Below, one piece after another: positions 8,898 to 41,001 of a stretch of DNA of 64,000 bases; the first letter of the stretch is position 1; the number at the start of each line of letters is the position of its first letter. The notes below the pieces were generated by a model, which had not been told where the DNA came from, did not search any database, and worked only from the letters and a program-made list of their open reading frames with translations. The DNA lies in the NCBI GenBank assembly GCA_012838795.1, contig DUOO01000056.1, positions 84,119 to 148,118 of the forward strand. The letters are read 5' to 3'. The position numbers were made by a program, and so were the translations under genes. This DNA comes from Clostridiaceae bacterium. Its GTDB lineage: Bacteria; Bacillota; Clostridia; Saccharofermentanales; DTU023.

Positions 8898-10079
8898 TTA
8901 ACAATCAATTTCATATATTGTGCCAACTTCAGGAGATAAGAGTTCAATCGTGTTTTCTCTGATTACTATCGGTTTTTCCCATCTGCAACCAAAATCCGAA
9001 CCGATGCCGAATGTATCAATTTGATATGTCATGCCTGCTTCTAAATTGAATGTTGAAATAGTCTCAATCCAAGGAGCTTCCACTTCAATCATACCTGTAC
9101 TGTGACATGGACCGTATACGTATACATCTTCTCTGCCGTTGTCTTTAAAGAATTTTTCGTATTCGATTGCCAATTCACTTGCCGGTAATCCTGCACCTTG
9201 CGACATCTTATCTGTAGTCCATCTATGTGCCTCTAAGAGGAACTCAACGATTTCTCTTTTTTCACCGGTCAAGGGGCCCATAGAAATGGGTAAGCCGATT
9301 GCGGAACTATAACCGTCAATCTTTGCCGAGAAATTCAGTTGAACCAGATCGCCTTTTTGAATTTTATCATAACCTGATCGTGAAATAGCATGTTGTGTGC
9401 TCTTTTGGCTAAAGCAATAAATCGGCAGACCTTCTGCTTCTGCACCTTCACGGTAAAATACGCTATGTGCAATTCCAACTAATTGTAATTCTGTCATTCC
9501 AGGTTTAATCGCCTCAATAACTTCTTTAATTGCTATATCAGAAATTCTTGCCCCTTCTCTTAAACACGCAATTTCATTTTCTGATTTGATTTGGCGTAAT
9601 GAAACCATAATATCTGATGCATCAACAATTTCTGCATTTGGATAAGCTTTGGTCAGGCCTTCATACATAACCATCGTTGTATCAATCGGTGAAGCAAGTC
9701 CTATTTTGATTTTAGATTCATTCACTCCAAGATGTTTAAATACATCTACATAAGTTTGCATTTTGTCAGCCAGATGCGGATATTGAGGATTTGCACTTTC
9801 AATATATTCCCGCATCATAAAAATATCTTTGATTACAGCCTTATCTGCAGCAAAAATCGGAGATTCAGGTCCAACCATTAAAGCTGTATCTCCATCTTGG
9901 TTAATTGCTACACCGGATCTTTCAAATACCGGCCAAAATGCACTGAAATATCTTGGATTTGCATAATCTGATTCAGTACCGTTTACGACCAATACATCCA
10001 ATCCTTTTTCTTTAATCAACTTCCCTGCTTTAAGTGCTCTTTCCCTATACTCTGATTTTGGAATCATTACTCTTGACAT
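8898..10079 (-). CDS. M24-family (Xaa-Pro aminopeptidase/creatinase fold) protein, first gene of the operon
   Basis: 393 aa. Creatinase-type N-domain plus pita-bread C-domain (GDLVQLNFSAKIDGYSSAIG..., CHSTGMIEVEAP). SD AGGAGG. The metal ligands look incomplete (see findings). Confidence 0.75.
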   Translation of the reverse strand: MSRVMIPKSEYRERALKAGKLIKEKGLDVLVVNGTESDYANPRYFSAFWPVFERSGVAINQDGDTALMVGPESPIFAADKAVIKDIFMMREYIESANPQYPHLADKMQTYVDVFKHLGVNESKIKIGLASPIDTTMVMYEGLTKAYPNAEIVDASDIMVSLRQIKSENEIACLREGARISDIAIKEVIEAIKPGMTELQLVGIAHSVFYREGAEAEGLPIYCFSQKSTQHAISRSGYDKIQKGDLVQLNFSAKIDGYSSAIGLPISMGPLTGEKREIVEFLLEAHRWTTDKMSQGAGLPASELAIEYEKFFKDNGREDVYVYGPCHSTGMIEVEAPWIETISTFNLEAGMTYQIDTFGIGSDFGCRWEKPIVIRENTIELLSPEVGTIYEIDC

Positions 10080-10110: not shown

Positions 10111-10128
10111 TGAGCAATCGTTTGCTCA
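10111..10128. promoter_or_regulatory. LacI-family operator, copy 1 (TGAGCAATCGTTTGCTCA)
   Basis: Imperfect palindrome with a central CG. Half sites GAGCAAT/GAGCAAA. Located 32 nt upstream of the M24 gene start. Confidence 0.7.
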
Positions 10129-10190
10129 AAAGGTGTCAATCTCAGTTATTTTTGTTTAATCTGCTTTTTTCTGTTTTGCATTATACTTTT

Positions 10191-10207
10191 TGAGCAATCG
10201 TTTGCTC
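10191..10207. promoter_or_regulatory. LacI-family operator, copy 2 (TGAGCAATCGTTTGCTC)
   Basis: Identical core, 80 bp from copy 1. Adjacent to a minus-strand TATAAT (complement of 10180-10185). Confidence 0.7.
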
Positions 10208-10299: not shown

Positions 10300-11298
10300 T
10301 TAGAGTGTTTCTCCTTCAATAAATTCTGACTTAAGAATAATTGTTTCAGGCTGATATGTTTTTGTTCCTTGATTTAGTTTTGTTATTAATCGTTCTGCCG
10401 CTAAGCGTCCCATTTCGTGTGCCGGTTGAATCATATTGGTAAACTTCGGTTCCATAAAGCCATAGATATCAATATGATCAAAACATGCTATACCCATATC
10501 TTGTGGAACATTTATGCCTAACTTATATGCTGCTCGTAATGCTGCATATGCTGTTACATTGTTGTGTGTTAAAATTGCTTCCGGAATATTTCCTTCATCA
10601 AATTGCTCCGTTATTTTCTGCCATGCGTCATCATACATAAAACTTGTTCTTACTATCGAATCTTCATCTACAGGAATATTATATTCATTCATCGCCCGGA
10701 TAAAACCTGCAAGTCTATCTTCTGCTGTTGATTCTCGGCTCGGACCTGTCACAGTCATTATTTTGGTATAACCCTTATCCAACATTAGCTTCGTCAATTT
10801 ATAAGCTGATGATTCATTATCTACGCCGATAAAATCCACTTTTCTATTATCTGTTGCCGGAATATTGTCTATAAAAACTACTCTATTGAATATTCCGGTT
10901 TCAACTGATGACCAAATTTCGCTTCCGGTAGTAGCGACAATCATTCCGTCTACATATGAATTTTGTAACTGATTCACATATTCTGTTGCTCTTGCCGCTT
11001 CACTTTCACAATTAAATAAAATTGTTGAATAGCCTTTCTCTCTCGCAACCTCTTCTATCGCATTAAAAATTATTCCATAATATACGTTTGTAATATCAGG
11101 CACTACCAGACCGATTGATCTTGATTCCTGTAATTTCAAACTTTTAGCAATTAGATTCGGTATATAGCGAACTTCTTTAGCATAAGCTAAAACATTCTCT
11201 CTAAGTTCTTGTGTAACTCTTCCTTTTCCATTTAATATTCTGGAAACAGTCGAAACTGATATATCAAATTTATCTGCAATATCTTGTAATTTAACCAT
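10300..11298 (-). CDS. LacI/GalR family transcriptional regulator
   Basis: 332 aa. N-terminal HTH VKLQDIADKFDISVSTVSRILNG plus a periplasmic-binding-protein-like sugar-binding domain. Confidence 0.9.
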   Translation of the reverse strand: MVKLQDIADKFDISVSTVSRILNGKGRVTQELRENVLAYAKEVRYIPNLIAKSLKLQESRSIGLVVPDITNVYYGIIFNAIEEVAREKGYSTILFNCESEAARATEYVNQLQNSYVDGMIVATTGSEIWSSVETGIFNRVVFIDNIPATDNRKVDFIGVDNESSAYKLTKLMLDKGYTKIMTVTGPSRESTAEDRLAGFIRAMNEYNIPVDEDSIVRTSFMYDDAWQKITEQFDEGNIPEAILTHNNVTAYAALRAAYKLGINVPQDMGIACFDHIDIYGFMEPKFTNMIQPAHEMGRLAAERLITKLNQGTKTYQPETIILKSEFIEGETL

Positions 11299-11711: not shown

Positions 11712-12788
11712 ATGAAAGTTAAATTACAAAAACACTTCTTTGAAACCAAAGAACAAACTATTCTGGAAACAAATAGCTTTACCGCATCGATATTTAAATA
11801 CAGCAGCGGTATTGAAGCTGTGAAATTACAAAACGAAATTGGCTATATCATAGTACTTCCTTATAACGGGCAAATGATCTGGGAGGCTTTCTTTTACGGA
11901 AACTCAATAAAAATGGAAACACCATTTCCTGAACCTGTAAAAAGCGAATTATTCGGCGGAACCTACGGTTGTTATCTGATGCACTGCGGTATGAATGCAA
12001 TGGGTGTACCGAAAGAAACCGATAATCACTCTCCACACGGAGATACCCCTTATGCAAACTACAAAAATGCTGAAATTATTACGGGATCAAATTCAAAAGG
12101 CAACTATATTGCTGTTACCGGCGAATATGAACACAATATCGCTTTTGACCAGCATTATATCGCTCAACCACTGGTTAAACTATATGAAAATTCCGGAATG
12201 CTGGAAGTGTCCATGAAAACTAAAAACTTATCACGTAAAAATATGGACTTAATGTATTTATGCCATATTAATAATAAGTTTGTTCCGGACGGTAAAATAT
12301 ATCAGACATTAGATTGGGATGCCGATCACATGGCAATTCAAGAAATTGATCAAACTACTGCTGATCAAAATTTATTAGATTTGTTCAATAGAATTAAAAA
12401 GGATCCGGCATCATCAAATCCTATTTCCGAGGGCGATTACTACGATCCTGAAATAGTGTTTTTCTTAAGAAACATGAAGACAGATCAACAAGACAATGCT
12501 CATTTCCTTTATGTATTGCCTGATCAGTCAGCATATTATACGTATTTTGATACAAAAGTATTAAACCACGGAGTGCGTTGGATTGCTTATCATGAAGATT
12601 GTCATTCAATGGGATTTGTCTTGCCCGCTACTGCAGAATCTGAAGGATATACAGCAGAAAAATCAAAAGGTAATTTACTTTCTTTAGGAACCAACCAGGA
12701 ATTTGAAGCAACTGTTTTCTGTGGTGTTATTCCTCACGAAGAAGCTGATCAAATCATTAAAAAGATTGCAAAAATTAATCAAAAATAA
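11712..12788 (+). CDS. Aldose-1-epimerase-superfamily protein (DUF4432-like)
   Basis: ORF 11691..12788. I prefer ATG 11712 (MKVKLQ...), preceded by AAGGAGAAAGG. HSPHGD... and the beta-sandwich-like sequence style suggest the family. Assignment is from memory. Confidence 0.55.
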   Translation: MKVKLQKHFFETKEQTILETNSFTASIFKYSSGIEAVKLQNEIGYIIVLPYNGQMIWEAFFYGNSIKMETPFPEPVKSELFGGTYGCYLMHCGMNAMGVPKETDNHSPHGDTPYANYKNAEIITGSNSKGNYIAVTGEYEHNIAFDQHYIAQPLVKLYENSGMLEVSMKTKNLSRKNMDLMYLCHINNKFVPDGKIYQTLDWDADHMAIQEIDQTTADQNLLDLFNRIKKDPASSNPISEGDYYDPEIVFFLRNMKTDQQDNAHFLYVLPDQSAYYTYFDTKVLNHGVRWIAYHEDCHSMGFVLPATAESEGYTAEKSKGNLLSLGTNQEFEATVFCGVIPHEEADQIIKKIAKINQK

Positions 12789-12846
12789 TTGTTCATTCGT
12801 GAAATAATTAGAGGTTGTCTCAGAATTCTGAGCTGTGAAAGTTTTA

Positions 12847-13299
12847 CTCCCGGGCGTTAAAGTGTCAAAATTGACGGCTCTGCAAATCTCGGTTTGCGGG
12901 TAATCCCCACAGCCGTAATTTTTGACAGATCCGGCCTTCTCCCGAACGTTAAAGTGTCAAAATTGACGGCTCTGCAAATCTCGGATTGTCGTGAACCCCC
13001 ACAGCCGTAAATTTTGGCACCTCCGGCCTTCTCCCGAACGTTAAAGTGTCAAAATTGATGGCTCTGCAAATCTCGGTTTGCGGGCAACCCCCACAGTCGT
13101 AATTTTTGACAGATCCGGCCTTCTCCCGGGCGTTAAAGTGTCAAAATTGACGGCTCTGCAAATTCCGGATTGCGGGTAATCCCCACAGCCGTAATTTTTG
13201 ACAGATCCGGCCTTCTCCCGAACGTTAAAGTGTCAAAATTGACGGCTCTGCAAATCTCGGTTTGCGGGCAACCCCCACAGTCGCAATTTTTGACAGATC
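12847..13299 (+). repeat. Tandem array of 4.9 copies of a 92-bp structured unit
   Basis: Unit starts at 12847, 12939, 13031, 13123 and 13215. Units are near-identical, each with 20-nt inverted arms and an inner hairpin. Confidence 0.95.
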
Positions 13300-13404
13300 T
13301 GATGTGGATTTTCTTTACACCGCAGCGAAAAGAGAGCAGTTTTCTTGACCGGGAAAATCCTTTGAGATAGCTCTAATTAATAAGCTAATACATTTTGCTA
13401 TGCT

Positions 13405-15300
13405 TCAATTAATTCCATCTAAAATACCAGCAGCCCAATCAACTCCATAATCATAGATAGTCACTTTTCGCGGGCAACCGGATTCATCCCAACCCATCAT
13501 TTCATAATACAATTCGATGTTGGATTCAAATTGTTCCCGATCGAGTTTTTTGCCGGCTAAGGCTCCGGCATTGATTTCTTGTTCAAAGAATCTGTCGGGT
13601 AATTTATCATCTTCTTTGGAAAATCCCTCGCGGTAATTATAAAGGCGGAACAAATGATTCTTTAATTCACCAAGGCGCATAATTTCATATGAAGAAGTTT
13701 CAAATCCGGTAACTTGATGGAATAAATCCGCCATTTCTGCCAAACTATATACTCTGGTCGGAGCTGAAGCAAAAATACACATTCCGAGTGCATCAACTGC
13801 AGACCACAGATTATTCAGCACTTTATAATCATTAACCTTTTCCGGACCGGAATAATGCATTGGGATTCTTTCAAGAATTCCAAGTGTGCGGCTATAGTTC
13901 ATCGTATGCTCCCAGCCTACTTCGGTATCATAATCCCAATCGTGCTCACAAATATCGTAACGCGGACCGACGGCGGCAGTAGCATAACCTAAAGCCAAAT
14001 TTGTCTGCGAGCGACATTCTGTTGAAACAAGTTCATTGCCTTTTACCGTCATAGCATATTCCCGGGAATCATTTCCGATTATTTCGGCCGCCCGGGCTGC
14101 ACCCTCGGCTAAAATATCTCCAAGATCTTGTCGTTTTGCTATCATTTCAGTCAATTTTTCTATATCGACATCCGGACCGAAATTCAGATTGATTCCGCTC
14201 AACATTGATTCATCTAAGGCTTCGTTTTGTTTTGCTTCTTGAGCAAAAGAAATTGTGAAACCGAGTGAATTAGGGTCCATGCCATATTCGTTACATAAAA
14301 CATTGGCTTTAATTATTTTCGCTAAATCACTGTTGCCGATATTCGGACCCAAAGATCCCAGAGCCTCCTGATGCAGACCGCCCATGAATTCATTATCCGA
14401 AGCAGTTGCATAACGTTTAATACAATTATTAGGACAGTAAGGACATGGGGATTCCCCTTTATAAAATTCCGCAAATTTTTCCGGAGTGTATTGATCTGTA
14501 TAATCACATTCATTGGTCTGATAATTATTGACACAAAGGGCTGCATCAATACCATGTGTATGGATCCAGGCACCAAAACCGGGACGATCATATTGCCACA
14601 TCGAAAGTACATTTTCTTGCATCTTTTTTGTAAAGTTTCTCGAGATTTCTTCTAACTGATTCGGAGCATAAACCTCTGGAACATGTCCACCCGTAATGAC
14701 AACAGCTTTTAGGTTTTTTGATCCCATAACCGCGCCCATTCCTGCTCTGGAAGCTTGATGGTTTTGATCGCAAATTATATTCGCAAATCGTACTTTATTC
14801 TCACCGGCAGGTCCGATTGTTGCAATTGATGAATCGGGATAATCCGCTTTAATTTTTTCCACTGTATCACTGACTTTTTGTCCCCAAAGTTCTTCTGCCG
14901 ATATTAATTGCGGAATTTGATTTTCAATTAATAACATCACAGGTTGTTCGGATTTGCCACGAAAAATTATACCGTCATAACCTGATCTTTTTAATGCCAT
15001 GGCAAACGGACCTTCACATCTTGCCTCACCGATACCGCCTGTTGCAGGCGATTTTCCGGTGATCGTAAATCTTGCTAAGCCGGGAGCTTGATGACCGCCT
15101 AAAATACCGTTGAAAAACATCAAATATGCTTCCGGATCAAAAGCATCAATATCTGCCGGAGTTTCTTGAAGCAATTTTGTTACAGCCATTACAGATCCCG
15201 ATCCATATCGACGATATTCAATTTCAGTAGGTTTTTGCTCACTAAACTTCTTGTGCGTTAAATCCACATATAGTATTTTCCCATGGTATCCAAAGTTCAT
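13405..15300 (-). CDS. Aldehyde:ferredoxin oxidoreductase (tungstopterin AOR family)
   Basis: 631 aa. AOR N-terminal domain (GKILYVDLT...). CxxCxxxC cluster motif CPYCPNNC. SD AAGGAG. Confidence 0.9.
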   Translation of the reverse strand: MNFGYHGKILYVDLTHKKFSEQKPTEIEYRRYGSGSVMAVTKLLQETPADIDAFDPEAYLMFFNGILGGHQAPGLARFTITGKSPATGGIGEARCEGPFAMALKRSGYDGIIFRGKSEQPVMLLIENQIPQLISAEELWGQKVSDTVEKIKADYPDSSIATIGPAGENKVRFANIICDQNHQASRAGMGAVMGSKNLKAVVITGGHVPEVYAPNQLEEISRNFTKKMQENVLSMWQYDRPGFGAWIHTHGIDAALCVNNYQTNECDYTDQYTPEKFAEFYKGESPCPYCPNNCIKRYATASDNEFMGGLHQEALGSLGPNIGNSDLAKIIKANVLCNEYGMDPNSLGFTISFAQEAKQNEALDESMLSGINLNFGPDVDIEKLTEMIAKRQDLGDILAEGAARAAEIIGNDSREYAMTVKGNELVSTECRSQTNLALGYATAAVGPRYDICEHDWDYDTEVGWEHTMNYSRTLGILERIPMHYSGPEKVNDYKVLNNLWSAVDALGMCIFASAPTRVYSLAEMADLFHQVTGFETSSYEIMRLGELKNHLFRLYNYREGFSKEDDKLPDRFFEQEINAGALAGKKLDREQFESNIELYYEMMGWDESGCPRKVTIYDYGVDWAAGILDGIN

Positions 15301-16936: not shown

Positions 16937-18538
16937 CTATTTTTTAAGACTGGATTTTTTTTGTTTATTCCATTTTGAGATCAGCGAAATTATTAAAAAT
17001 GTAATTGTTAAGCCCAGATAAGTTAAGCTGAGTGCGGGATTAGCATTAATTGTAAGTTCTTTTGCATGAATTAAACCGAAAAAGGAGAAGATTGTTGCAA
17101 CTAAAAAGAAGGCAGATGTTTTGAGCCAATTGCGATCGATAATCAGATATAGGATTGACGCATATATAATTGCCATAGTCATTGCACCTTGAGCAAGTGT
17201 AATAAAACCTTCCGCATAACCTGCTTCAGCCAGTTTTGTCGCAATAAGTGAAGTTGAACTACCGATACTCGTTAAACTATCGGCAGTTTGTCCACTAACT
17301 AAATTTGAATTGTTTTCAGTAAAATTACCCAATACATTAATAATTGAAAAGACTTTATTATTAATCAACTCAAAAAGCGGGATCGCAACTCCAAACATCA
17401 TCGCACCATAATAACGCTTGCGTCCGGATGCGAATGCTCCCGCACCGGATATTATTCCTATATAAACAAGCATAACTAATGATGCACTGACCGGTATCAG
17501 CGAAGTGACCACAGCAACTAAACCGGTTAAACATAAAATCAGGTGCACCATACCGGACAACAACGGGTAACCGGCTCCGGCTTCAGCTTTTTTCCAAGCC
17601 GGGTGTCCCCAATAATAATTCAACATAAAAGGATTTCCCAGTAGTGAACCGATTAAATTGCTCAGAGCAAGACCTATCAAAGCTGTTCGTGCCGGATATA
17701 TCTCTTTGCTCTCTTCCGCCTGTGCAAAAGCTTGCATATCTGCGGTTAGTTCCGAAAGCAAATAAGCCAAAATCAACGGCAAATAATTAATTGCAACTTG
17801 TAACGATTTATTAGTAATAAGGCCAAATTGAAAACTCGGGAGATATAAATTCAGGTTCGTAAAAGATTCCCTGAGCTGATCAACTTGCATTACACCGCTT
17901 ACCCAAGCAATAATTGTGCCTATTCCGATTGCTATCAGAGCAGGAGAACCAAATCTCGGTTTTATTTCTCCGAAATAAAAAGTAAATAAAATAAATAATG
18001 TAGGAATTATTACCCAGGGAATTGTAAATGCTTCTCCCAGCGGAGAAAGAATCATCCAAGTCAAGGCTCCGCCAACTGTAGCACCCATTAATGCTTCTCG
18101 GGGAATAAATTTAAAAATTAAACTGAAAACAAATGATAAAATCAGTTGCAGGACAGAATATATCAGCGAAACTCCGAGCGTTACCGACCAAGCAAAAATT
18201 GGATCCCGGCTGACAAAATAAGTGGGTAGCATAATTGCATTTAACCAAACAAAAAGTGTTGTTCCCGAAATTCCTCCAACCAGAGCGGTTATATCCTTGT
18301 TTTGAGTTTTTTTGCCCAAACTTCTTGCCAGCAGTGTATTAAACAAAGAGAAGATGAACACCGTAATGCCGGTTGCTGCGATAATTTTCCCGAAAACCAA
18401 TTTTTCTGACATATTTAAGACACCGACCAAGATCGGGACAGCAATGATTATTTTGCCGAAACTGTCAAAAAATGTACCTAGTCCGGCGTCTATGTCTCCC
18501 TTTTTACACCAGGGGATTTTTATTTCCTTATTCATCAA
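16937..18538 (-). CDS. Polytopic permease, distantly NCS2/AzgA-like (putative nucleobase-type transporter)
   Basis: 533 aa with more than 10 predicted TM segments. N-terminal GDIDAGLGTFFDSFGKII and the later GNPF...AEAGAGYPLLSG layout recall AGZA-type permeases. By-eye assignment only. Confidence 0.45.
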   Translation of the reverse strand: MMNKEIKIPWCKKGDIDAGLGTFFDSFGKIIIAVPILVGVLNMSEKLVFGKIIAATGITVFIFSLFNTLLARSLGKKTQNKDITALVGGISGTTLFVWLNAIMLPTYFVSRDPIFAWSVTLGVSLIYSVLQLILSFVFSLIFKFIPREALMGATVGGALTWMILSPLGEAFTIPWVIIPTLFILFTFYFGEIKPRFGSPALIAIGIGTIIAWVSGVMQVDQLRESFTNLNLYLPSFQFGLITNKSLQVAINYLPLILAYLLSELTADMQAFAQAEESKEIYPARTALIGLALSNLIGSLLGNPFMLNYYWGHPAWKKAEAGAGYPLLSGMVHLILCLTGLVAVVTSLIPVSASLVMLVYIGIISGAGAFASGRKRYYGAMMFGVAIPLFELINNKVFSIINVLGNFTENNSNLVSGQTADSLTSIGSSTSLIATKLAEAGYAEGFITLAQGAMTMAIIYASILYLIIDRNWLKTSAFFLVATIFSFFGLIHAKELTINANPALSLTYLGLTITFLIISLISKWNKQKKSSLKK

Positions 18539-25834: not shown

Positions 25835-26938
25835 TTACCTGCGTAAGGGGAGTACCAGATATAAGAATTGTTCTCCTTCCACAGGTTTAATTAAACAAGG
25901 CCCGAATGTCCCGGAAAATTCAAGGTATATATTCTCTACCGGAATATTACGCAAAGCATCCAAAAAATATTTTGGGTTATAGTCCGCATCTATATTTTCA
26001 CCCTCTAAATCGATTGAAATTTCTTCGTGTACCTCTCCTAAATCGGTTTGAGATGAAATTACCAGTGTTTCTTTATCCGTATTTTCCACAGTTACCGGGA
26101 ATCGTCTTTGTTCAACATTTATAACTAATGATGCTCGATCAATTGCATTTAACATGTCTTTTGTTCTTAATTTAATTTGACTCATCACTTCATTCGGAAC
26201 AACTTTATTATAGTCCATATATTCGCCTTGTAACAATCTGGAAACAAGTTTTACTGAACCTGTGTCAAACAATATGTGATTATGTGAAGGATATATTTTA
26301 ACCGGATTATCAGTCGGATCTAAAATTCCCGATACTTCTTGCATTGCTTTTGCCGGCACGATAAAAGACATGGCGGGTAATTCTTCTCTAAATTCTTCAC
26401 GCCTTATAGCTAAACGAAAACCGTCTATGGCAATTAATTCAAGCCTGTTATTATCAGCAACAACTTTAATTCCATTTAGAATAGGTCTGTTTTCATCTGA
26501 ACTGGCTGCAAAAATTGTTTGACCAATCATTTCTTTTAAGACTCTTTGAGAAACTTGCATTTTTTCAGCTTCTTCAACAATCGGAATTTTCGGATAATCA
26601 GTTGCTTCAATTCCTTTAATCTTAAATTGAGCTTTTCCACTGGTTATCTTAATTATATAATTCGTTTCTACTTCGATATTTACAATTTCTTCCGGCAATT
26701 TACGAACTATATCGCCGATCATTTTTGCGTTTAATACTACTTTTCCGGGAATTATTACATCTGTATCTATTTTACATTCAATTCCGGTTTCCAAATCATA
26801 TCCGGTAATCGTTAAAGTATCACTTTCTGCTTCGAATAACAAACCATCAAGAATAGACAAAGTAGAACGGGTAGCAATAGCCTTTTGCGCCATTGAAATT
26901 GCATCATTTAATAAATTTTTTGAGCAGATAAGTTTCAT
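25835..26938 (-). CDS. dnaN: DNA polymerase III beta sliding clamp
   Basis: 367 aa, typical DnaN sequence, position directly after dnaA. Confidence 0.95.
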   Translation of the reverse strand: MKLICSKNLLNDAISMAQKAIATRSTLSILDGLLFEAESDTLTITGYDLETGIECKIDTDVIIPGKVVLNAKMIGDIVRKLPEEIVNIEVETNYIIKITSGKAQFKIKGIEATDYPKIPIVEEAEKMQVSQRVLKEMIGQTIFAASSDENRPILNGIKVVADNNRLELIAIDGFRLAIRREEFREELPAMSFIVPAKAMQEVSGILDPTDNPVKIYPSHNHILFDTGSVKLVSRLLQGEYMDYNKVVPNEVMSQIKLRTKDMLNAIDRASLVINVEQRRFPVTVENTDKETLVISSQTDLGEVHEEISIDLEGENIDADYNPKYFLDALRNIPVENIYLEFSGTFGPCLIKPVEGEQFLYLVLPLRR

Positions 26939-27292
26939 ATACCTTCCTTTCTGATAAACTGTTTTTCAACAAGTTTAGTTATTGTTTAACAAAGTTGTTA
27001 ATGTTTATAAAATTTTCAAATTATAAATCGTAGTTTCTTTAATAAATAATATTATACTATTTACTTAATTAGTATTCATCCTCTTATTATATACTGTTGA
27101 TTATGTTAATAATCAACGATAAGCTCTGATATATAAAGCTATTTTGATGTAAAAAACTCTGTTAACAGTTTGCCTATAACTTTTTTGTTTTTAACATGAT
27201 TAACATTCAAATTTTTGTTAACAATTTAATGATGTTTTTTAACACCCGGTTTTTCACAATTGATAATAATTTTGTGAATTTAAAAAATAAGA
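26939..27292. other. dnaA-dnaN intergenic region: predicted second half of a bipartite oriC
   Basis: 354-bp AT-rich spacer. TGTTAATAA 27104. TGTTAAC 27160 and 27216. TGTTAATGT 26996. TTTTTAACA 27188 and 27236. One TTWTNCACA-type box, TTTTTCACA, at 27250-27258. Confidence 0.6.
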
Positions 27293-28639
27293 TTAAATAG
27301 GAGAAAGACGTAAATTAATCTCTTTAATTGAATTTTCCAATTCTGTATTATTATCTAATTCTTCTTTTACACGATCGCAAGCATGCATAACAGTAGCATG
27401 ATTTTTGTTACCGAAATCAATACCGATATCTTTGTATGTCATATTAAGTAAACTACGACAAAGATACATGGAAATTTGACGTGGTTGAACAATATCCTGA
27501 CTGCGTTTTTTGGATTTTAAATCATCCACGGTTACATTAAAATAATTGGCAGTTACATTCATAATTAATTCAGAACTTAAACTTTTAACCGAACGAGGAT
27601 CAATCTGATCTTTTAAGGCATTTCTGGTAGAAGCGAGATTGATACCGCCGCCGAGCATCGAATAAGCATAAATTGTTTTGAAAGCACCTTCAAGTTCACG
27701 AATATTGGAAGAAATGTGAGATGCAATGTAATCAAATACCTCATCCGGCCAATCAACATGATGTGCCTGAGCCAATTGAAGTAAAATAGCAATTCTCGTT
27801 TCATAATCAGGAGGATTGATATCAATTGTAATGCCACTGGAAAAACGGGTTTTCAATCTTTCTTCAAGAGTAATTAAAGATTGTGGCGGTTTATCACAAG
27901 TCATTACAATATTTTTTCCGGCTTCATATAAAGCATTAAATGTATGGAAAAATTCCTCTTGCATTCTTTCTTTATTTTCTAAAAATTGAACATCATCAAT
28001 CAGCAATAAATCCGTCATTCGATATTTATTGCGAAATGGTTCGAATTCTTTTAGCCGAATAGCCTCAATAAATTCATTAATAAAATTTTCGGAATTAACA
28101 TAAATTACATTCTTATCGGGAAAAACATCTTGGACATGGTTTCCGATTGCATGCATTAAATGAGTTTTGCCTAGACCTGAACCGCCGTAAAGGAATAAGG
28201 GATTATAGTTATTACTGTTTTGTAAAGACGCAACCGCAACACAAGCAGCATGAGCAAAGCGATTTCCTGAACCAACAACAAACGAATCAAATGTATAAGC
28301 AGGATTTAATACATCATTTGAAATATAAGATGCCTCTTCATCCTCTTTAGTTAAAATGTTTTGTTTAAGATTATTTAAATTATCTTTAGCATTAATTTCA
28401 ACTTTTACATCAAAAGTTTTTTGTGTAGCAAGTTTCAGAGCGGTACGAATCATCTCTTTGTATTGAACTACAAAATCGCGTGATATTTCATTCGGTACAG
28501 ACAAAACAAAAGTATCATCATTATATAGCATGGGAGTGATCGGTTTTAACCAAGTTGTATATGTGAGAGTAGGAACTTCTTTTTCCAGATAATCTTGACA
28601 TACATTTTGCCAAATAATATGAGCACTTTGTTCTTGCAT
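27293..28639 (-). CDS. dnaA: Chromosomal replication initiator DnaA
   Basis: 448 aa. AAA+ Walker A GGSGLGKTH, domain IV present. SD GAGGGGGG. Confidence 0.97.
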   Translation of the reverse strand: MQEQSAHIIWQNVCQDYLEKEVPTLTYTTWLKPITPMLYNDDTFVLSVPNEISRDFVVQYKEMIRTALKLATQKTFDVKVEINAKDNLNNLKQNILTKEDEEASYISNDVLNPAYTFDSFVVGSGNRFAHAACVAVASLQNSNNYNPLFLYGGSGLGKTHLMHAIGNHVQDVFPDKNVIYVNSENFINEFIEAIRLKEFEPFRNKYRMTDLLLIDDVQFLENKERMQEEFFHTFNALYEAGKNIVMTCDKPPQSLITLEERLKTRFSSGITIDINPPDYETRIAILLQLAQAHHVDWPDEVFDYIASHISSNIRELEGAFKTIYAYSMLGGGINLASTRNALKDQIDPRSVKSLSSELIMNVTANYFNVTVDDLKSKKRSQDIVQPRQISMYLCRSLLNMTYKDIGIDFGNKNHATVMHACDRVKEELDNNTELENSIKEINLRLSPI

Positions 28640-28957
28640 ATATCCCCCCTCTTTTCTTAATTGTTAAACTATACTAACAGAAAAAAACTGTAGGTAAAAG
28701 TTGTAATAATACAGAAGAAATGCAATAAATATCATTTTTTTCAACAATATGGATTATATAATCAAATGTTAATAGTGTTAATAACTTGGATAATAATTGA
28801 ATAATTCAAGTAAAAATCATGCGATAAATGTTAATAAGTATATGAAATAATGTTAATAACTTTATGAATATTATAAATATAGTTTTTTTTAATATTATAT
28901 AATTATTTTATAAATAAATTTCAATAGCAAATAGTCTATGTTAACGAGTTGAGTTTT
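28640..28957. other. dnaA-upstream region: predicted oriC box cluster plus an AT-rich candidate unwinding element
   Basis: Same-orientation 9-mers: TGTTAAACT 28662, TGTTAATAG 28767, TGTTAATAA 28776, 28829 and 28851, TGTTAACGA 28939. An almost pure A/T stretch lies at about 28861-28935. Confidence 0.65.
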
Positions 28958-29620
28958 TCATCCTTTTTCATGTTTTAATTTTGCCAAAATGTAGTTGAAT
29001 TTTTCGATCTTATTTCTAAATAATTTCAAATCAAAATTTGTTTCAACATCTTTTAATAAATTCTCAGCCTGGTCAATTTCTTTTTGTAATAAATCTTTTT
29101 GTTCCGAGGTAAGAGTATTATAATCAGTTAAATGTTTAATCAGAGCATTGATTCGTTTTCTCAGATTAATGACATGAGAAATCACTATTCTGTCTTGAAA
29201 AAGTTCGTGAATGAGTTCATTAAAAGTAAAATTATAATTATTTTCGGTAGCAACTGCTTTTAAAGGAAATCTCGGAAAATTTTCATCTCGAATATGTTCT
29301 AAGAGATGTTCGACTTGATTTCGTGAAAACCCGGAAAAAAACAAAAGATTTTCTGATTTTTGATTTTCACTGCGAGAAGTTTTTTGAAGAGGAATTAAAT
29401 TTTGATTATTACTTTTCTCTAAACGCTCTGTTACTTGAGAAATTCTTAATGAAAAATCACCACTTTTGATCAGATAAAAAGGGATTTCTTGAAGGTTTAA
29501 AAAACTTAAAAAACGATCTCTTTTATCTGAATCTGTTATTTCTTCTTCGGAAAAATAAACTATCAGTCCAAAAGGTGTTTTGAAAATAGGTTTGTCTGTC
29601 TTAACTTCTTGATCTGCCAA
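28958..29620 (-). CDS. DUF3783-like domain protein with a coiled-coil C-terminal half
   Basis: 220 aa. TTG start 9 nt after GGAAGGAG. LLFFSGFSRNQVEHLLEHIRDENFPRFPLKAVATENNYNFTFNELIHEL resembles DUF3783 (from memory). Confidence 0.5.
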   Translation of the reverse strand: MADQEVKTDKPIFKTPFGLIVYFSEEEITDSDKRDRFLSFLNLQEIPFYLIKSGDFSLRISQVTERLEKSNNQNLIPLQKTSRSENQKSENLLFFSGFSRNQVEHLLEHIRDENFPRFPLKAVATENNYNFTFNELIHELFQDRIVISHVINLRKRINALIKHLTDYNTLTSEQKDLLQKEIDQAENLLKDVETNFDLKLFRNKIEKFNYILAKLKHEKG

Positions 29621-36203: not shown

Positions 36204-36452
36204 ATGCAATATTCAAATATTACTAATTTTCGCAAAAATATTTATAAGCTTCTGGAAGAAACACTTAAATATAATGAACCTCTTCAAATCAGTACGAAAG
36301 ACGGCAATGCGATTGTTTTGAGCGAAGATGATTATAACGGTCTGATAGAAACACTATATTTAACATCTGTACCCGGAATGAAAGAAATCATAAAAGACGG
36401 TCTGACGACCTCCATTTCAGATTGTGTATCGGAAGACGAGGTCGAGTGGTAG
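36204..36452 (+). CDS. yefM: Type II antitoxin, Phd/YefM family
   Basis: 82 aa. FRKNIYKLLEET...ISTKDGNAIVLSEDDYNGLIETLYL. SD GGAGGAGGG. Confidence 0.88.
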   Translation: MQYSNITNFRKNIYKLLEETLKYNEPLQISTKDGNAIVLSEDDYNGLIETLYLTSVPGMKEIIKDGLTTSISDCVSEDEVEW

Positions 36453-36716
36453 ATGTATAAGATAATCTATACCAAAAGATCGATCAAAGATATTCCTAAA
36501 TTAAAGAGAGCAAAACTTGATACAAAAGCAAAAAATCTAATTTCTATTATTAAAAACAATCCTTATCAAAAACCTCCGTCGTATGAAAAATTAAAAGGTG
36601 ACTTACAAGGAGCTTATTCAAGACGAACCAACCACCAACATAGGCTTGTATATCAAATTTTGGAAGAAGAAAAAATCATAAAAATAATTAGCTTATGGAC
36701 TCATTATGAAATTTGA
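36453..36716 (+). CDS. yoeB: Type II toxin, Txe/YoeB family mRNA interferase
   Basis: 87 aa. The ATG abuts the yefM stop. ...LKGDLQGAYSRRTNHQHRLVYQI...ISLWTHYE. Confidence 0.88.
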   Translation: MYKIIYTKRSIKDIPKLKRAKLDTKAKNLISIIKNNPYQKPPSYEKLKGDLQGAYSRRTNHQHRLVYQILEEEKIIKIISLWTHYEI

Positions 36717-40463: not shown

Positions 40464-40464
40464 G

Positions 40465-40701
40465 CCTGTTTCTGCTCAGAATTCGACGCTGTGCAAATTT
40501 TCGTTTGCAGGCCTCCGAATTTTGAGCAATTTTCATATTATTACGCCCGTTTTTGCTCAGAATTCAACGCTGAGCGAATTTATTTCTGCATGTCTCCGAA
40601 AAGTGAGCAGTTTTCATGGCAGGAATCCCTGTTTCTGCTCAGAATTTTGAGCTGTGTAGATTTTTGCTTGCACAGCGATGAAAAGTGAGCAGTTTTCATG
40701 G
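40465..40701 (+). repeat. Tandem array of 3 copies of a ~82-bp structured unit, related to the 92-bp family
   Basis: The TGCTCAG anchor occurs at 40473, 40554 and 40636. Shared tail CCGAWWWWGTGAGCAGTTTTCAT. Inner hairpin TGCAAA...TTTGCA. Confidence 0.9.
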
Positions 40702-41001
40702 TTGTGGTATCGGTTCTTGCACTAACCCATTTTTTAAGATTTCAAAAAAGCAAGATGAGAACATTTAAAAAGAAGAGCAAAAAAGAAGAACAAAAAAGAA
40801 AGCAATAAGACAGAACAATATGGAAGAACAACAAGGACGAGCAATAAGGAAAAGCAATACGGGAATCTAAAAATGTAATATAAGATACCAAATAATTATT
40901 GAATACGCTCAGATGCTGAATATGATATTAAATATGCAATAATGTGTAAGAGAGCTTATGAGAATAATGAATTTTAAAATATATAAAACGGGAGGTACAC
41001 C

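Follow-up and report, generated by a model that had tools for sequence, protein, structure and literature searches.

A tandem array of hairpin units with a 92-bp period from an uncultured Saccharofermentanales lineage and its likeness to BOX and REP-type intergenic repeats

Among the intergenic repeats of bacteria, the BOX elements of Streptococcus pneumoniae and S. suis consist of a boxA module, a variable tandem array of boxB modules and a boxC module; the number of modules changes by unequal crossover, the elements insert into one another, and they co-occur with the terminator-like SPRITE elements (PMC3049150). Repetitive extragenic palindromes (REPs) lie in tandem clusters downstream of genes and contain G.T pairs, taken as a hint of function at the RNA level, and REP superfamilies are not reported from Firmicutes (PMC3733652). 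Here we describe repeats of this general kind in a 64,000-nt stretch of Clostridiaceae DNA (GenBank assembly GCA_012838795.1, contig DUOO01000056.1, positions 84,119 to 148,118 of the forward strand; hereafter the window). Their host is an uncultured Saccharofermentanales (Clostridia) lineage from biogas reactors, and the samples that carry it are biogas-fermenter metagenomes, among them SRR3184552/3 and ERZ27280799. Between a gene of the DUF4432 family and a convergent aldehyde:ferredoxin oxidoreductase (AOR) gene the window contains a tandem array of 92-bp units, called array A here, each unit of which is predicted to form a long hairpin. The account that we favour, and regard as fairly probable, is that array A is a lineage-specific, non-coding palindromic minisatellite, akin to REPs and the bacterial interspersed mosaic elements (BIMEs) or to BOX elements, which gains and loses length through unequal recombination or slippage. 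The sequence family is new and works like the known REP, BIME and BOX-type repeats, and it extends intergenic palindromic repeats of these types to an uncultured clade of Clostridia, for which the literature consulted describes none.

The array and the hairpin that it repeats have the following coordinates:

Window 12847..13299 (+): array A, with units A1 at 12847, A2 at 12939, A3 at 13031, A4 at 13123 and A5 at 13215 (Tandem Repeats Finder, repeat detection, folding and pair counts).
Window 12863..12927 (+): hairpin of unit A1, recurring at +92, +184, +276 and +368, with pairing at 17 of 20 arm positions, with GCAAAU/GUUUGC as its inner stem and with a small stem, GGG/CCC (repeat detection, folding and covariance model R1).

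Tandem Repeats Finder assigns array A a period of 92 bp and 4.9 copies (89% matches, score 743), and gap-free repeat detection spaces the unit starts at 92, 92 and 92 bp. The five starts at 92-bp steps given in the original prediction are recovered, with unit 5 diverging after about 13299, and its view that the whole unit is repeated without unique spacers agrees with both the Tandem Repeats Finder result and the unit alignment. Each unit comprises a 65-nt imperfect hairpin preceded by 16 nt and followed by 11 nt of a GC-rich linker (27 nt in total). At 50.3% GC the array is richer than its surroundings, as had been remarked (the flanking genes have 35-41% and the window as a whole 36.8%). No frame stays open through it, again as predicted: no internal open reading frame (ORF) exceeds 38 aa, and the longest ORF touching the array (66 aa) extends beyond it, lacks a homologue in a protein database search and is considered spurious. 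We reject a coding repeat, there being no long ORF, and also a CRISPR array, since the 92-bp unit repeats without unique spacers, the neighbouring genes are metabolic and no cas genes lie nearby; the earlier description of tandem hairpin units that are neither CRISPR nor coding is upheld on both counts.

The hairpin arms, TGTCAAAATTGACGGCTCTG and CACAGCCGTAATTTTTGACA, stand 25 nt apart and are 85% complementary, matching the 17 of 20 paired positions counted previously by hand. The smaller hairpin proposed to lie within them appears in the minimum-free-energy fold as a TGCAAA/TTTGCG stem; this fold has an A/U stem of 8 bp on the outside, a GC-rich stem of 6 bp in the middle, the inner GCAAAU/GUUUGC hairpin and the small GGG/CCC hairpin. 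Compared with shuffled sequences, whole 92-nt units folded as plus-strand RNA are moderately stable (z -0.5 to -2.9), the hairpin cores folded as single-stranded DNA are equally stable on the two strands (z -4.9 and -4.75), and the entire 616-nt spacer folded as RNA gives z -4.8.

Array A differs in length between strains. In other assemblies of the lineage its flanks are 99.3-100% identical to the window, and the number of A units is five in the window, at least six in a second strain (L002) and seven in a third (L001), counts that are provisional because they derive from short-read metagenome assemblies, in which 92-bp repeats may collapse or be mis-joined. L001 carries two extra units between A2 and A3, adding exactly 184 bp, and these are distinct variants, which argues for a real length polymorphism; in L002 unit A2 is duplicated. 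Within the window units 1 and 4 share GGGCG plus TAAT and units 3 and 5 share GAACG plus GCAAC, as first observed, and the recent block duplication that these shared variants were thought to reflect is borne out by the two other strains. Because the linker is duplicated together with the hairpin, and higher-order blocks of 184 bp exist, whole units must have been duplicated in place rather than inserted singly.

An assembly artefact, in which metagenomic short reads were mis-joined or a repeat collapsed, would account for the fact that most contigs break in the arrays (six others end within array A, and two, L043 and L044, within the array C described below) and for unit counts that differ between assemblies. 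However, independent ENA, JGI and Logan assemblies give the same junctions and unit order with identical flanks, four assemblies contain A1-A2 and at least three contain A3-A4-A5, and two other arrays of related units exist, so that we find this explanation hardly credible. The arrays do break short-read assemblies of this biogas-reactor lineage, and masking or long reads are advisable when its metagenome-assembled genomes are binned; as hypervariable loci they could also be used as strain markers of the variable-number tandem repeat (VNTR) type.

The two other arrays, which the original prediction does not mention, and the short sequences that flank array A are as follows:

Window 40464..40700 (+): array B, made up of three hairpin units of 81 bp (B1 at 40464, B2 at 40545, B3 at 40626) starting at the stop codon of gdh, the glutamate dehydrogenase gene (Tandem Repeats Finder, folding and nhmmer).
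L042 20310-20627: array C, about 8.5 kb to the right of the window end, with a period of 82, 3.9 copies and 97% matches, between a gene for a 749-aa product and ftsH.
Window 12811..12846 (+): leader of array A, formed by the 5' half of a B-type hairpin unit that is degenerate (CTCAGAATTCTGAGCTGTG matches B3 at 40638-40656).
Window 13300..13352 (+): trailer of array A, formed by the 3' half of that B-type unit and ending in GAGAGCAGTTTTCTTG (matched to B2 and B3 by blastn-short and nhmmer).

The units of arrays A, B and C belong to one family of intergenic hairpins, dispersed and specific to the lineage, and all three arrays lie within roughly 84 kb, the extent over which the lineage's own genome was inspected. 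Units of A and C have arms in common (in C, GGTGTCAAAAA and TTTTTGACACC) and share the motif CCCCACACAGCC, also given as CCCCACAGCC, as well as the linker motif GATCTCCCGG (GATC..CTCCCGG); otherwise their linkers differ, and the inner hairpins differ among the sister arrays. Array C has an additional, degenerate fifth unit, and the 5' end of B occurs in reverse complement just upstream of it. The covariance model R1, built from the A and C units, scores all five A units at 85-96 bits and recovers both arrays, with no other match in the 202 kb of the lineage and its relatives that was searched and only a weak same-strand score (13 bits) for B1. Tandem Repeats Finder assigns array B a period of 81 and 2.3 copies. 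The arms of the B unit, TGCTCAGAATTCG and CGAATTTTGAGCA, enclose an inner TGCAAAT...TTTGCA hairpin, so that the architecture matches that of A, and the sequence of its 5' half is in part that of A. B1 and B3 fold with z -5.7 and z -3.2, the stems are long and bulged and are followed by UUUUC at the unit end, and the array is identical in six other assemblies.

Exact-motif scans beyond the lineage give only chance matches. The exact unit-A motif has one chance match, within a GC-rich coding gene, among 185,579 species-representative GTDB genomes and none in IMG/VR viral contigs, and a longer exact A and B motif is absent from JGI metagenome contigs. A 17-base A/B motif has only chance coding matches in viral contigs, the 3'-end motif of B has 11 chance matches in metagenomes, and a motif of the B ends has none in viral contigs. 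Plasmids and phages give no BLAST match to the array, protein searches with the spurious 66-aa ORF yield no candidates for further arrays, and a literature search on Saccharofermentanales and tandem repeats returned nothing. Rfam has no match to array A at gathering scores or at E values up to 10, the best array matches having E above 3, and a search of the window together with L042, L045 and L048 finds two tRNAs only; that no named RNA family had been recognised in the array is consistent with this.

The sequences on either side of array A derive from a single repeat of the second type. Local alignment of the leader to B3 40638-40668 scores 40 (shuffles have a mean of 15 and a maximum of 26), the trailer scores 51 against B3 40649-40700 (shuffle maximum 32), and when the two flanks (36 nt and 53 nt) are joined they align to B3 as one unit (nhmmer, E 3.8e-5). 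Since the flanks match the halves of B3, array A sits inside a B unit, and as read from these alignments it is nested within a B-type hairpin unit that is older and degenerate. Some 20 nt of B3 (GAGCTGTGTAGATTTTTGCT) are represented on both sides of the array, although this duplication is imperfect.

A B 5' half, then five, at least six or seven A units, then a B 3' half is an arrangement that recalls the terminal modules of BOX elements placed around a variable tandem module. The likeness extends to the intergenic position, the strain-variable number of modules, the predicted folding if transcribed, the nesting and the low-GC Firmicute host, and the stem and U-run of the B units likewise resemble SPRITE. 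BoxB is shorter, at about 45 bp, than the internal module here, which measures 92 bp and forms a long hairpin by itself. The terminal halves here no longer pair, whereas boxA and boxC do, and BOX elements number more than 100 per genome, as against three arrays in about 84 kb. Of known systems it is the pneumococcal BOX elements that come nearest in architecture; sequence similarity is not expected.

With the REPs and BIME-2 elements of enterobacteria and pseudomonads (PMC2817692, PMC3116915, PMC3733652) the arrays have in common that they are extragenic imperfect palindromes following genes, repeated in tandem with linker DNA in variable copy number, that two inverted arms per period form a large hairpin with a period of about 90-100 bp, and that G.T pairs occur in the stems. 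They differ in lacking both the GTAG/CGTC tag with its 8-13-bp short-loop stem and any sequence similarity, in having arms that are not REP-like stem-loops, and in that no REP-associated tyrosine transposase (RAYT) is seen. Under the published definition of the tag (PMC3733652), GTAG is absent from both strands of the 92-nt consensus, and the only CGTC, on the minus strand in CCGTCAATTTTGAC, has no 8-9-bp stem after it; the hairpin measures 65 nt, of which 25 nt are interior. The original prediction held that a match to a described family, such as REPs or transposable elements of the miniature inverted-repeat type (MITEs), would refute novelty; such a match is found in kind but not in sequence.

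The NIMEs of Neisseria are repeat units bounded by conserved 20-bp dRS3 inverted repeats, which are a phage or recombinase target, and mycobacterial MIRUs are not long hairpins, some of them overlapping short ORFs. Arrays of 40-150-bp intergenic units, strain-variable copy numbers and mosaics of repeat types are features that NIMEs and mycobacterial MIRU-VNTR loci have in common with the arrays described here, although dRS3-type boundaries and ORF-overlapping units without hairpins are not seen. Type III antitoxins (ToxI, CptI) and CRISPRs are similar in being non-coding tandem direct repeats of a structured unit. The units here are two to three times longer than those of ToxI and CptI. Type III antitoxin arrays have a ToxN/AbiQ-type toxin gene behind them on their own strand; no toxin gene follows the array here, and we reject a type III toxin-antitoxin array, as the next gene is the convergent AOR gene and the ORFs in the gap are of at most 66 aa and without homologues. 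Several other classes were also tried and rejected. An integron attC site does not fit, because GAACGTTAAAG is part of the linker, not of the stem, and departs from RYYYAAC/GTTRRRY at Y and R positions, and no integrase is found among the neighbours; a riboswitch or leader does not fit either, the arrays following genes rather than preceding them. An iteron or DnaA-box cluster was considered and rejected.

The changes within the stems bear on whether the hairpin is kept as RNA or as DNA. Unit 3 had been reported to carry C>T changes in both arms, each giving a G.U pair on the plus strand, and these are present as described. In a tally over eight distinct A units from three assemblies, five stem changes give plus-strand G.U pairs versus one giving A.C, and another two create a Watson-Crick pair where there was a mismatch. 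In the joint alignment of A and C units 85.6% of the cells are paired, versus 34-50% when partners are slid, two stem positions are changed on both sides, and the one-sided changes are almost all G.U-compatible. Judged from this alignment the palindrome of the A and C units is maintained, and the pattern of stem changes leans slightly towards the plus strand. These are the changes expected if the array encoded a structured plus-strand RNA (unit-length small RNAs, a protein sponge or a repeat RNA resembling type III antitoxins) whose hairpin is preserved by RNA selection; the strong structure of the whole spacer as RNA points in the same direction, as does the better folding on the plus strand of the B hairpins and of the hairpins behind gdh in a relative described below, both of which also follow plus-strand genes. 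However, a ratio of 5:1 corresponds only to about p=0.1, and the events are, with few exceptions, C>T changes of the plus strand, a pattern that strand-biased deamination or mutational bias would equally produce, and for these reasons a function of the plus-strand RNA is not established; of the earlier reading of this strand as RNA, the G.U changes in unit 3 stand and the inference drawn from them does not.

Folding energies do not give a consistent preference for either strand. Summed over the A units they are about -134 kcal/mol on the plus strand and -136 on the minus strand, and for the whole spacer -193.2 and -192.6; the C units fold 6-7 kcal/mol better on the minus strand, and the B hairpins and the post-gdh hairpins of the 90% relative 2-8 kcal/mol better on the plus strand. 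A uniform strand rule is rejected accordingly. Arrays A, B and C share one orientation, each behind a plus-strand gene, which is suggestive but, with three arrays, not significant. A scan finds no promoter-like site in or before array A, nor within the other arrays. Together with the lack of an Rfam match, the variation in unit number among near-identical strains, the absence of a toxin-like or other partner gene downstream, where AOR is convergent, and the divergent inner hairpins of the sister arrays, this leads us to regard selection for a plus-strand RNA as unlikely. If the plus-strand G.U bias is real, the units would be candidate hairpin regulators in the 3' untranslated regions of a Gram-positive anaerobe.

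The repeats are recent, lineage-specific and fast-changing, to judge from the site behind gdh, which differs among relatives. Between gdh and the Pyr_redox gene the lineage of the window has a gap of 538 nt with three B units; in a relative with 90% identical gdh the gap is 313 nt and contains two strong hairpins of unrelated sequence, and in a relative at 81% identity (L046-L049; GCA_900198705.1, a 1.99-Mb contig) it is 158 nt and contains no repeat. A site that is empty, or filled with two hairpins of one kind or three of another, while the gdh proteins are 81-100% identical, implies very fast turnover. The two hairpins of the 90% relative (L045 11264-11440) have arms TGCACACTTTTTAAGG and CCTTAGAAAGTGTGCA and z-scores of -4.3 and -6.0. 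Directly after array B the window has an A/G-rich low-complexity stretch (AAAAAGAAGAGCAAAAAAGAAGAAC...) at 40720-40860, and the corresponding gap in both relatives is without one. The AOR locus of the relative P0002 is rearranged and has no comparable gap, and 22 kb of it are without units. The 81% relative has a tandem array of its own by the enolase gene, also with an 81-bp period, in 5.2 and 6.4 copies in its two assemblies (L048 6299-6719 and L047 6205-6719 respectively); called ORFs of 145 and 169 aa span it, 81 being a multiple of 3. We do not count this array as a member of the family, as it contains the B-like motif TTTCTGCTC but no significant hairpin.

A post-gdh site that is filled in some relatives and empty in others is also what would be seen if each hairpin were an active MITE with TG...CA termini, the array having arisen by repeated site-specific insertion with a transposase encoded elsewhere. 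The structure of the unit suits this reading: the 20-nt terminal inverted repeats (TGTCAAAA...TTTTGACA; a second possible pair of ends is CTGCTCAGAATT...TGAGCAG) begin with TG and end with CA, are paired at 17 of 20 positions and belong to a core with z -4.9 as single-stranded DNA. Related elements are found at two or more loci with different flanks, and array A interrupts a B unit with the imperfect duplication of about 20 nt of B on its two sides. Yet it is the whole array that this duplication flanks, and duplication within B units would explain it equally well. The 27-nt linker repeats with the hairpin and 184-bp blocks exist, as expected of duplication in place; the linkers differ between arrays A and C; the 202 kb searched contain no solo copies, and the genes called on about 84 kb include no transposase or partner insertion sequence. 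Repeated insertion of such an element is therefore doubtful.

More doubtful still is that the A, B and C units represent a previously undescribed and currently active mobile or RNA-level system limited to one Saccharofermentanales lineage, whether as stem-targeting hairpin elements with a single-strand transposase or as plus-strand arrays processed into unit-length regulatory or defence RNAs.

Gyrase-type relief of supercoiling has been proposed for BIME-2, and the position of array A between convergent genes would suit a DNA-level platform of this sort, binding gyrase or a nucleoid protein, or else a block of bidirectional terminators. The gap has no other terminator-like hairpin, and in the arms of the A unit the 5' side has an A-tract and the 3' side a T-tract, so that either strand reads as a stem followed by a U-run; B units likewise end in a stem and UUUUC, and the hairpins are symmetric in DNA stability. 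Arrays B and C are situated between co-directional genes, however, the loops of at least 25 nt are atypical of intrinsic terminators, and variable copy number speaks against a tuned function. A scan for intrinsic terminators (GC-rich stem, 3-8-nt loop and U-tract) finds none in 12789-13404 or 40464-41001, and this class was rejected for the arrays. We consider either form of platform improbable.

In the minisatellite interpretation that we prefer, one unit, a 65-nt hairpin with its 27-nt linker, has been amplified in place into a head-to-tail array, which gains and loses whole units or pairs of units between near-identical strains. These changes would come about by unequal homologous recombination or replication slippage, both of which may be favoured by hairpin formation and by the mutually complementary arms of adjacent units. 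The arrays are probably co-transcribed with the preceding gene, as the 3' untranslated tail of its transcript; in such tails the hairpins would act at most as barriers to transcription or decay, and copy number itself is presumably not under tight selection. Several points weigh against this interpretation. The unit counts of five, at least six and seven share the uncertainty of the short-read assemblies; the two B halves that flank array A, when joined, are no more stable in folding than shuffled sequences (z +0.65), unlike boxA and boxC; no solo unit was found in the 202 kb, and neither a transposase nor a RAYT among the genes called on about 84 kb; and a role as terminator or stabiliser is, like co-transcription itself, something that we infer.

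The genes on either side of array A are as follows:

Window 11712..12788 (+): DUF4432-family gene (Pfam PF14486), upstream of array A, its stop codon 22 nt before the B-type leader.
Window 13405..15300 (-): AOR gene (Pfam AFOR_N and AFOR_C), convergent.

The gap that holds array A runs from the end of the first (12788) to the end of the second (13405) and measures 616 bp, and coordinates and Pfam families agree with the prediction of a gap of this size between a plus-strand DUF4432-like gene and a minus-strand AOR gene. The DUF4432-family product (358 aa) has exact matches in other assemblies, and the exact AOR protein is present on 11 contigs. To the left of array C, the 749-aa gene, which has no Pfam family, has a heptamer AAATAGC repeated 7.9 times across its stop codon (L042 20050-20104). 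A 533-aa ORF at window 16937-18538 (-) is likewise without a Pfam family and has no exact match in the protein collection; its TTG start may be mis-set.

The window is chromosomal and includes dnaN (25835-26938, -) and dnaA (27293-28639, -), which adjoin an AT-rich stretch (28-31% GC, with many small repeats at 28779-29514) at the cumulative GC-skew minimum. The chromosomal replication origin very probably lies in the window, at around 25835-29620, to go by these features, although no cluster of DnaA boxes of the E. coli-type consensus (TTATCCACA, at most one mismatch) is found in that interval. A LacI/GalR-type operator-like palindrome, GAGCAATCGTTTGCTC, occurs twice (10112-10134 and 10185-10207), with 50 nt between the copies; both lie shortly after the stop codon of a gene for a LacI-family regulator (10300-11298, -) and directly upstream of a peptidase M24 gene (8898-10079, -) and sugar ABC transporter genes; from this position the two palindromes are likely to be operators of the peptidase M24 and sugar ABC transporter cluster. 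A toxin-antitoxin pair, YefM (PhdYeFM) and YoeB, is encoded at about 36204-36716 and is also present in L035 and L045; it is absent from strain L036, which has a 260-nt insertion between the genes for an Fe-dependent repressor and a phosphoribosyltransferase.

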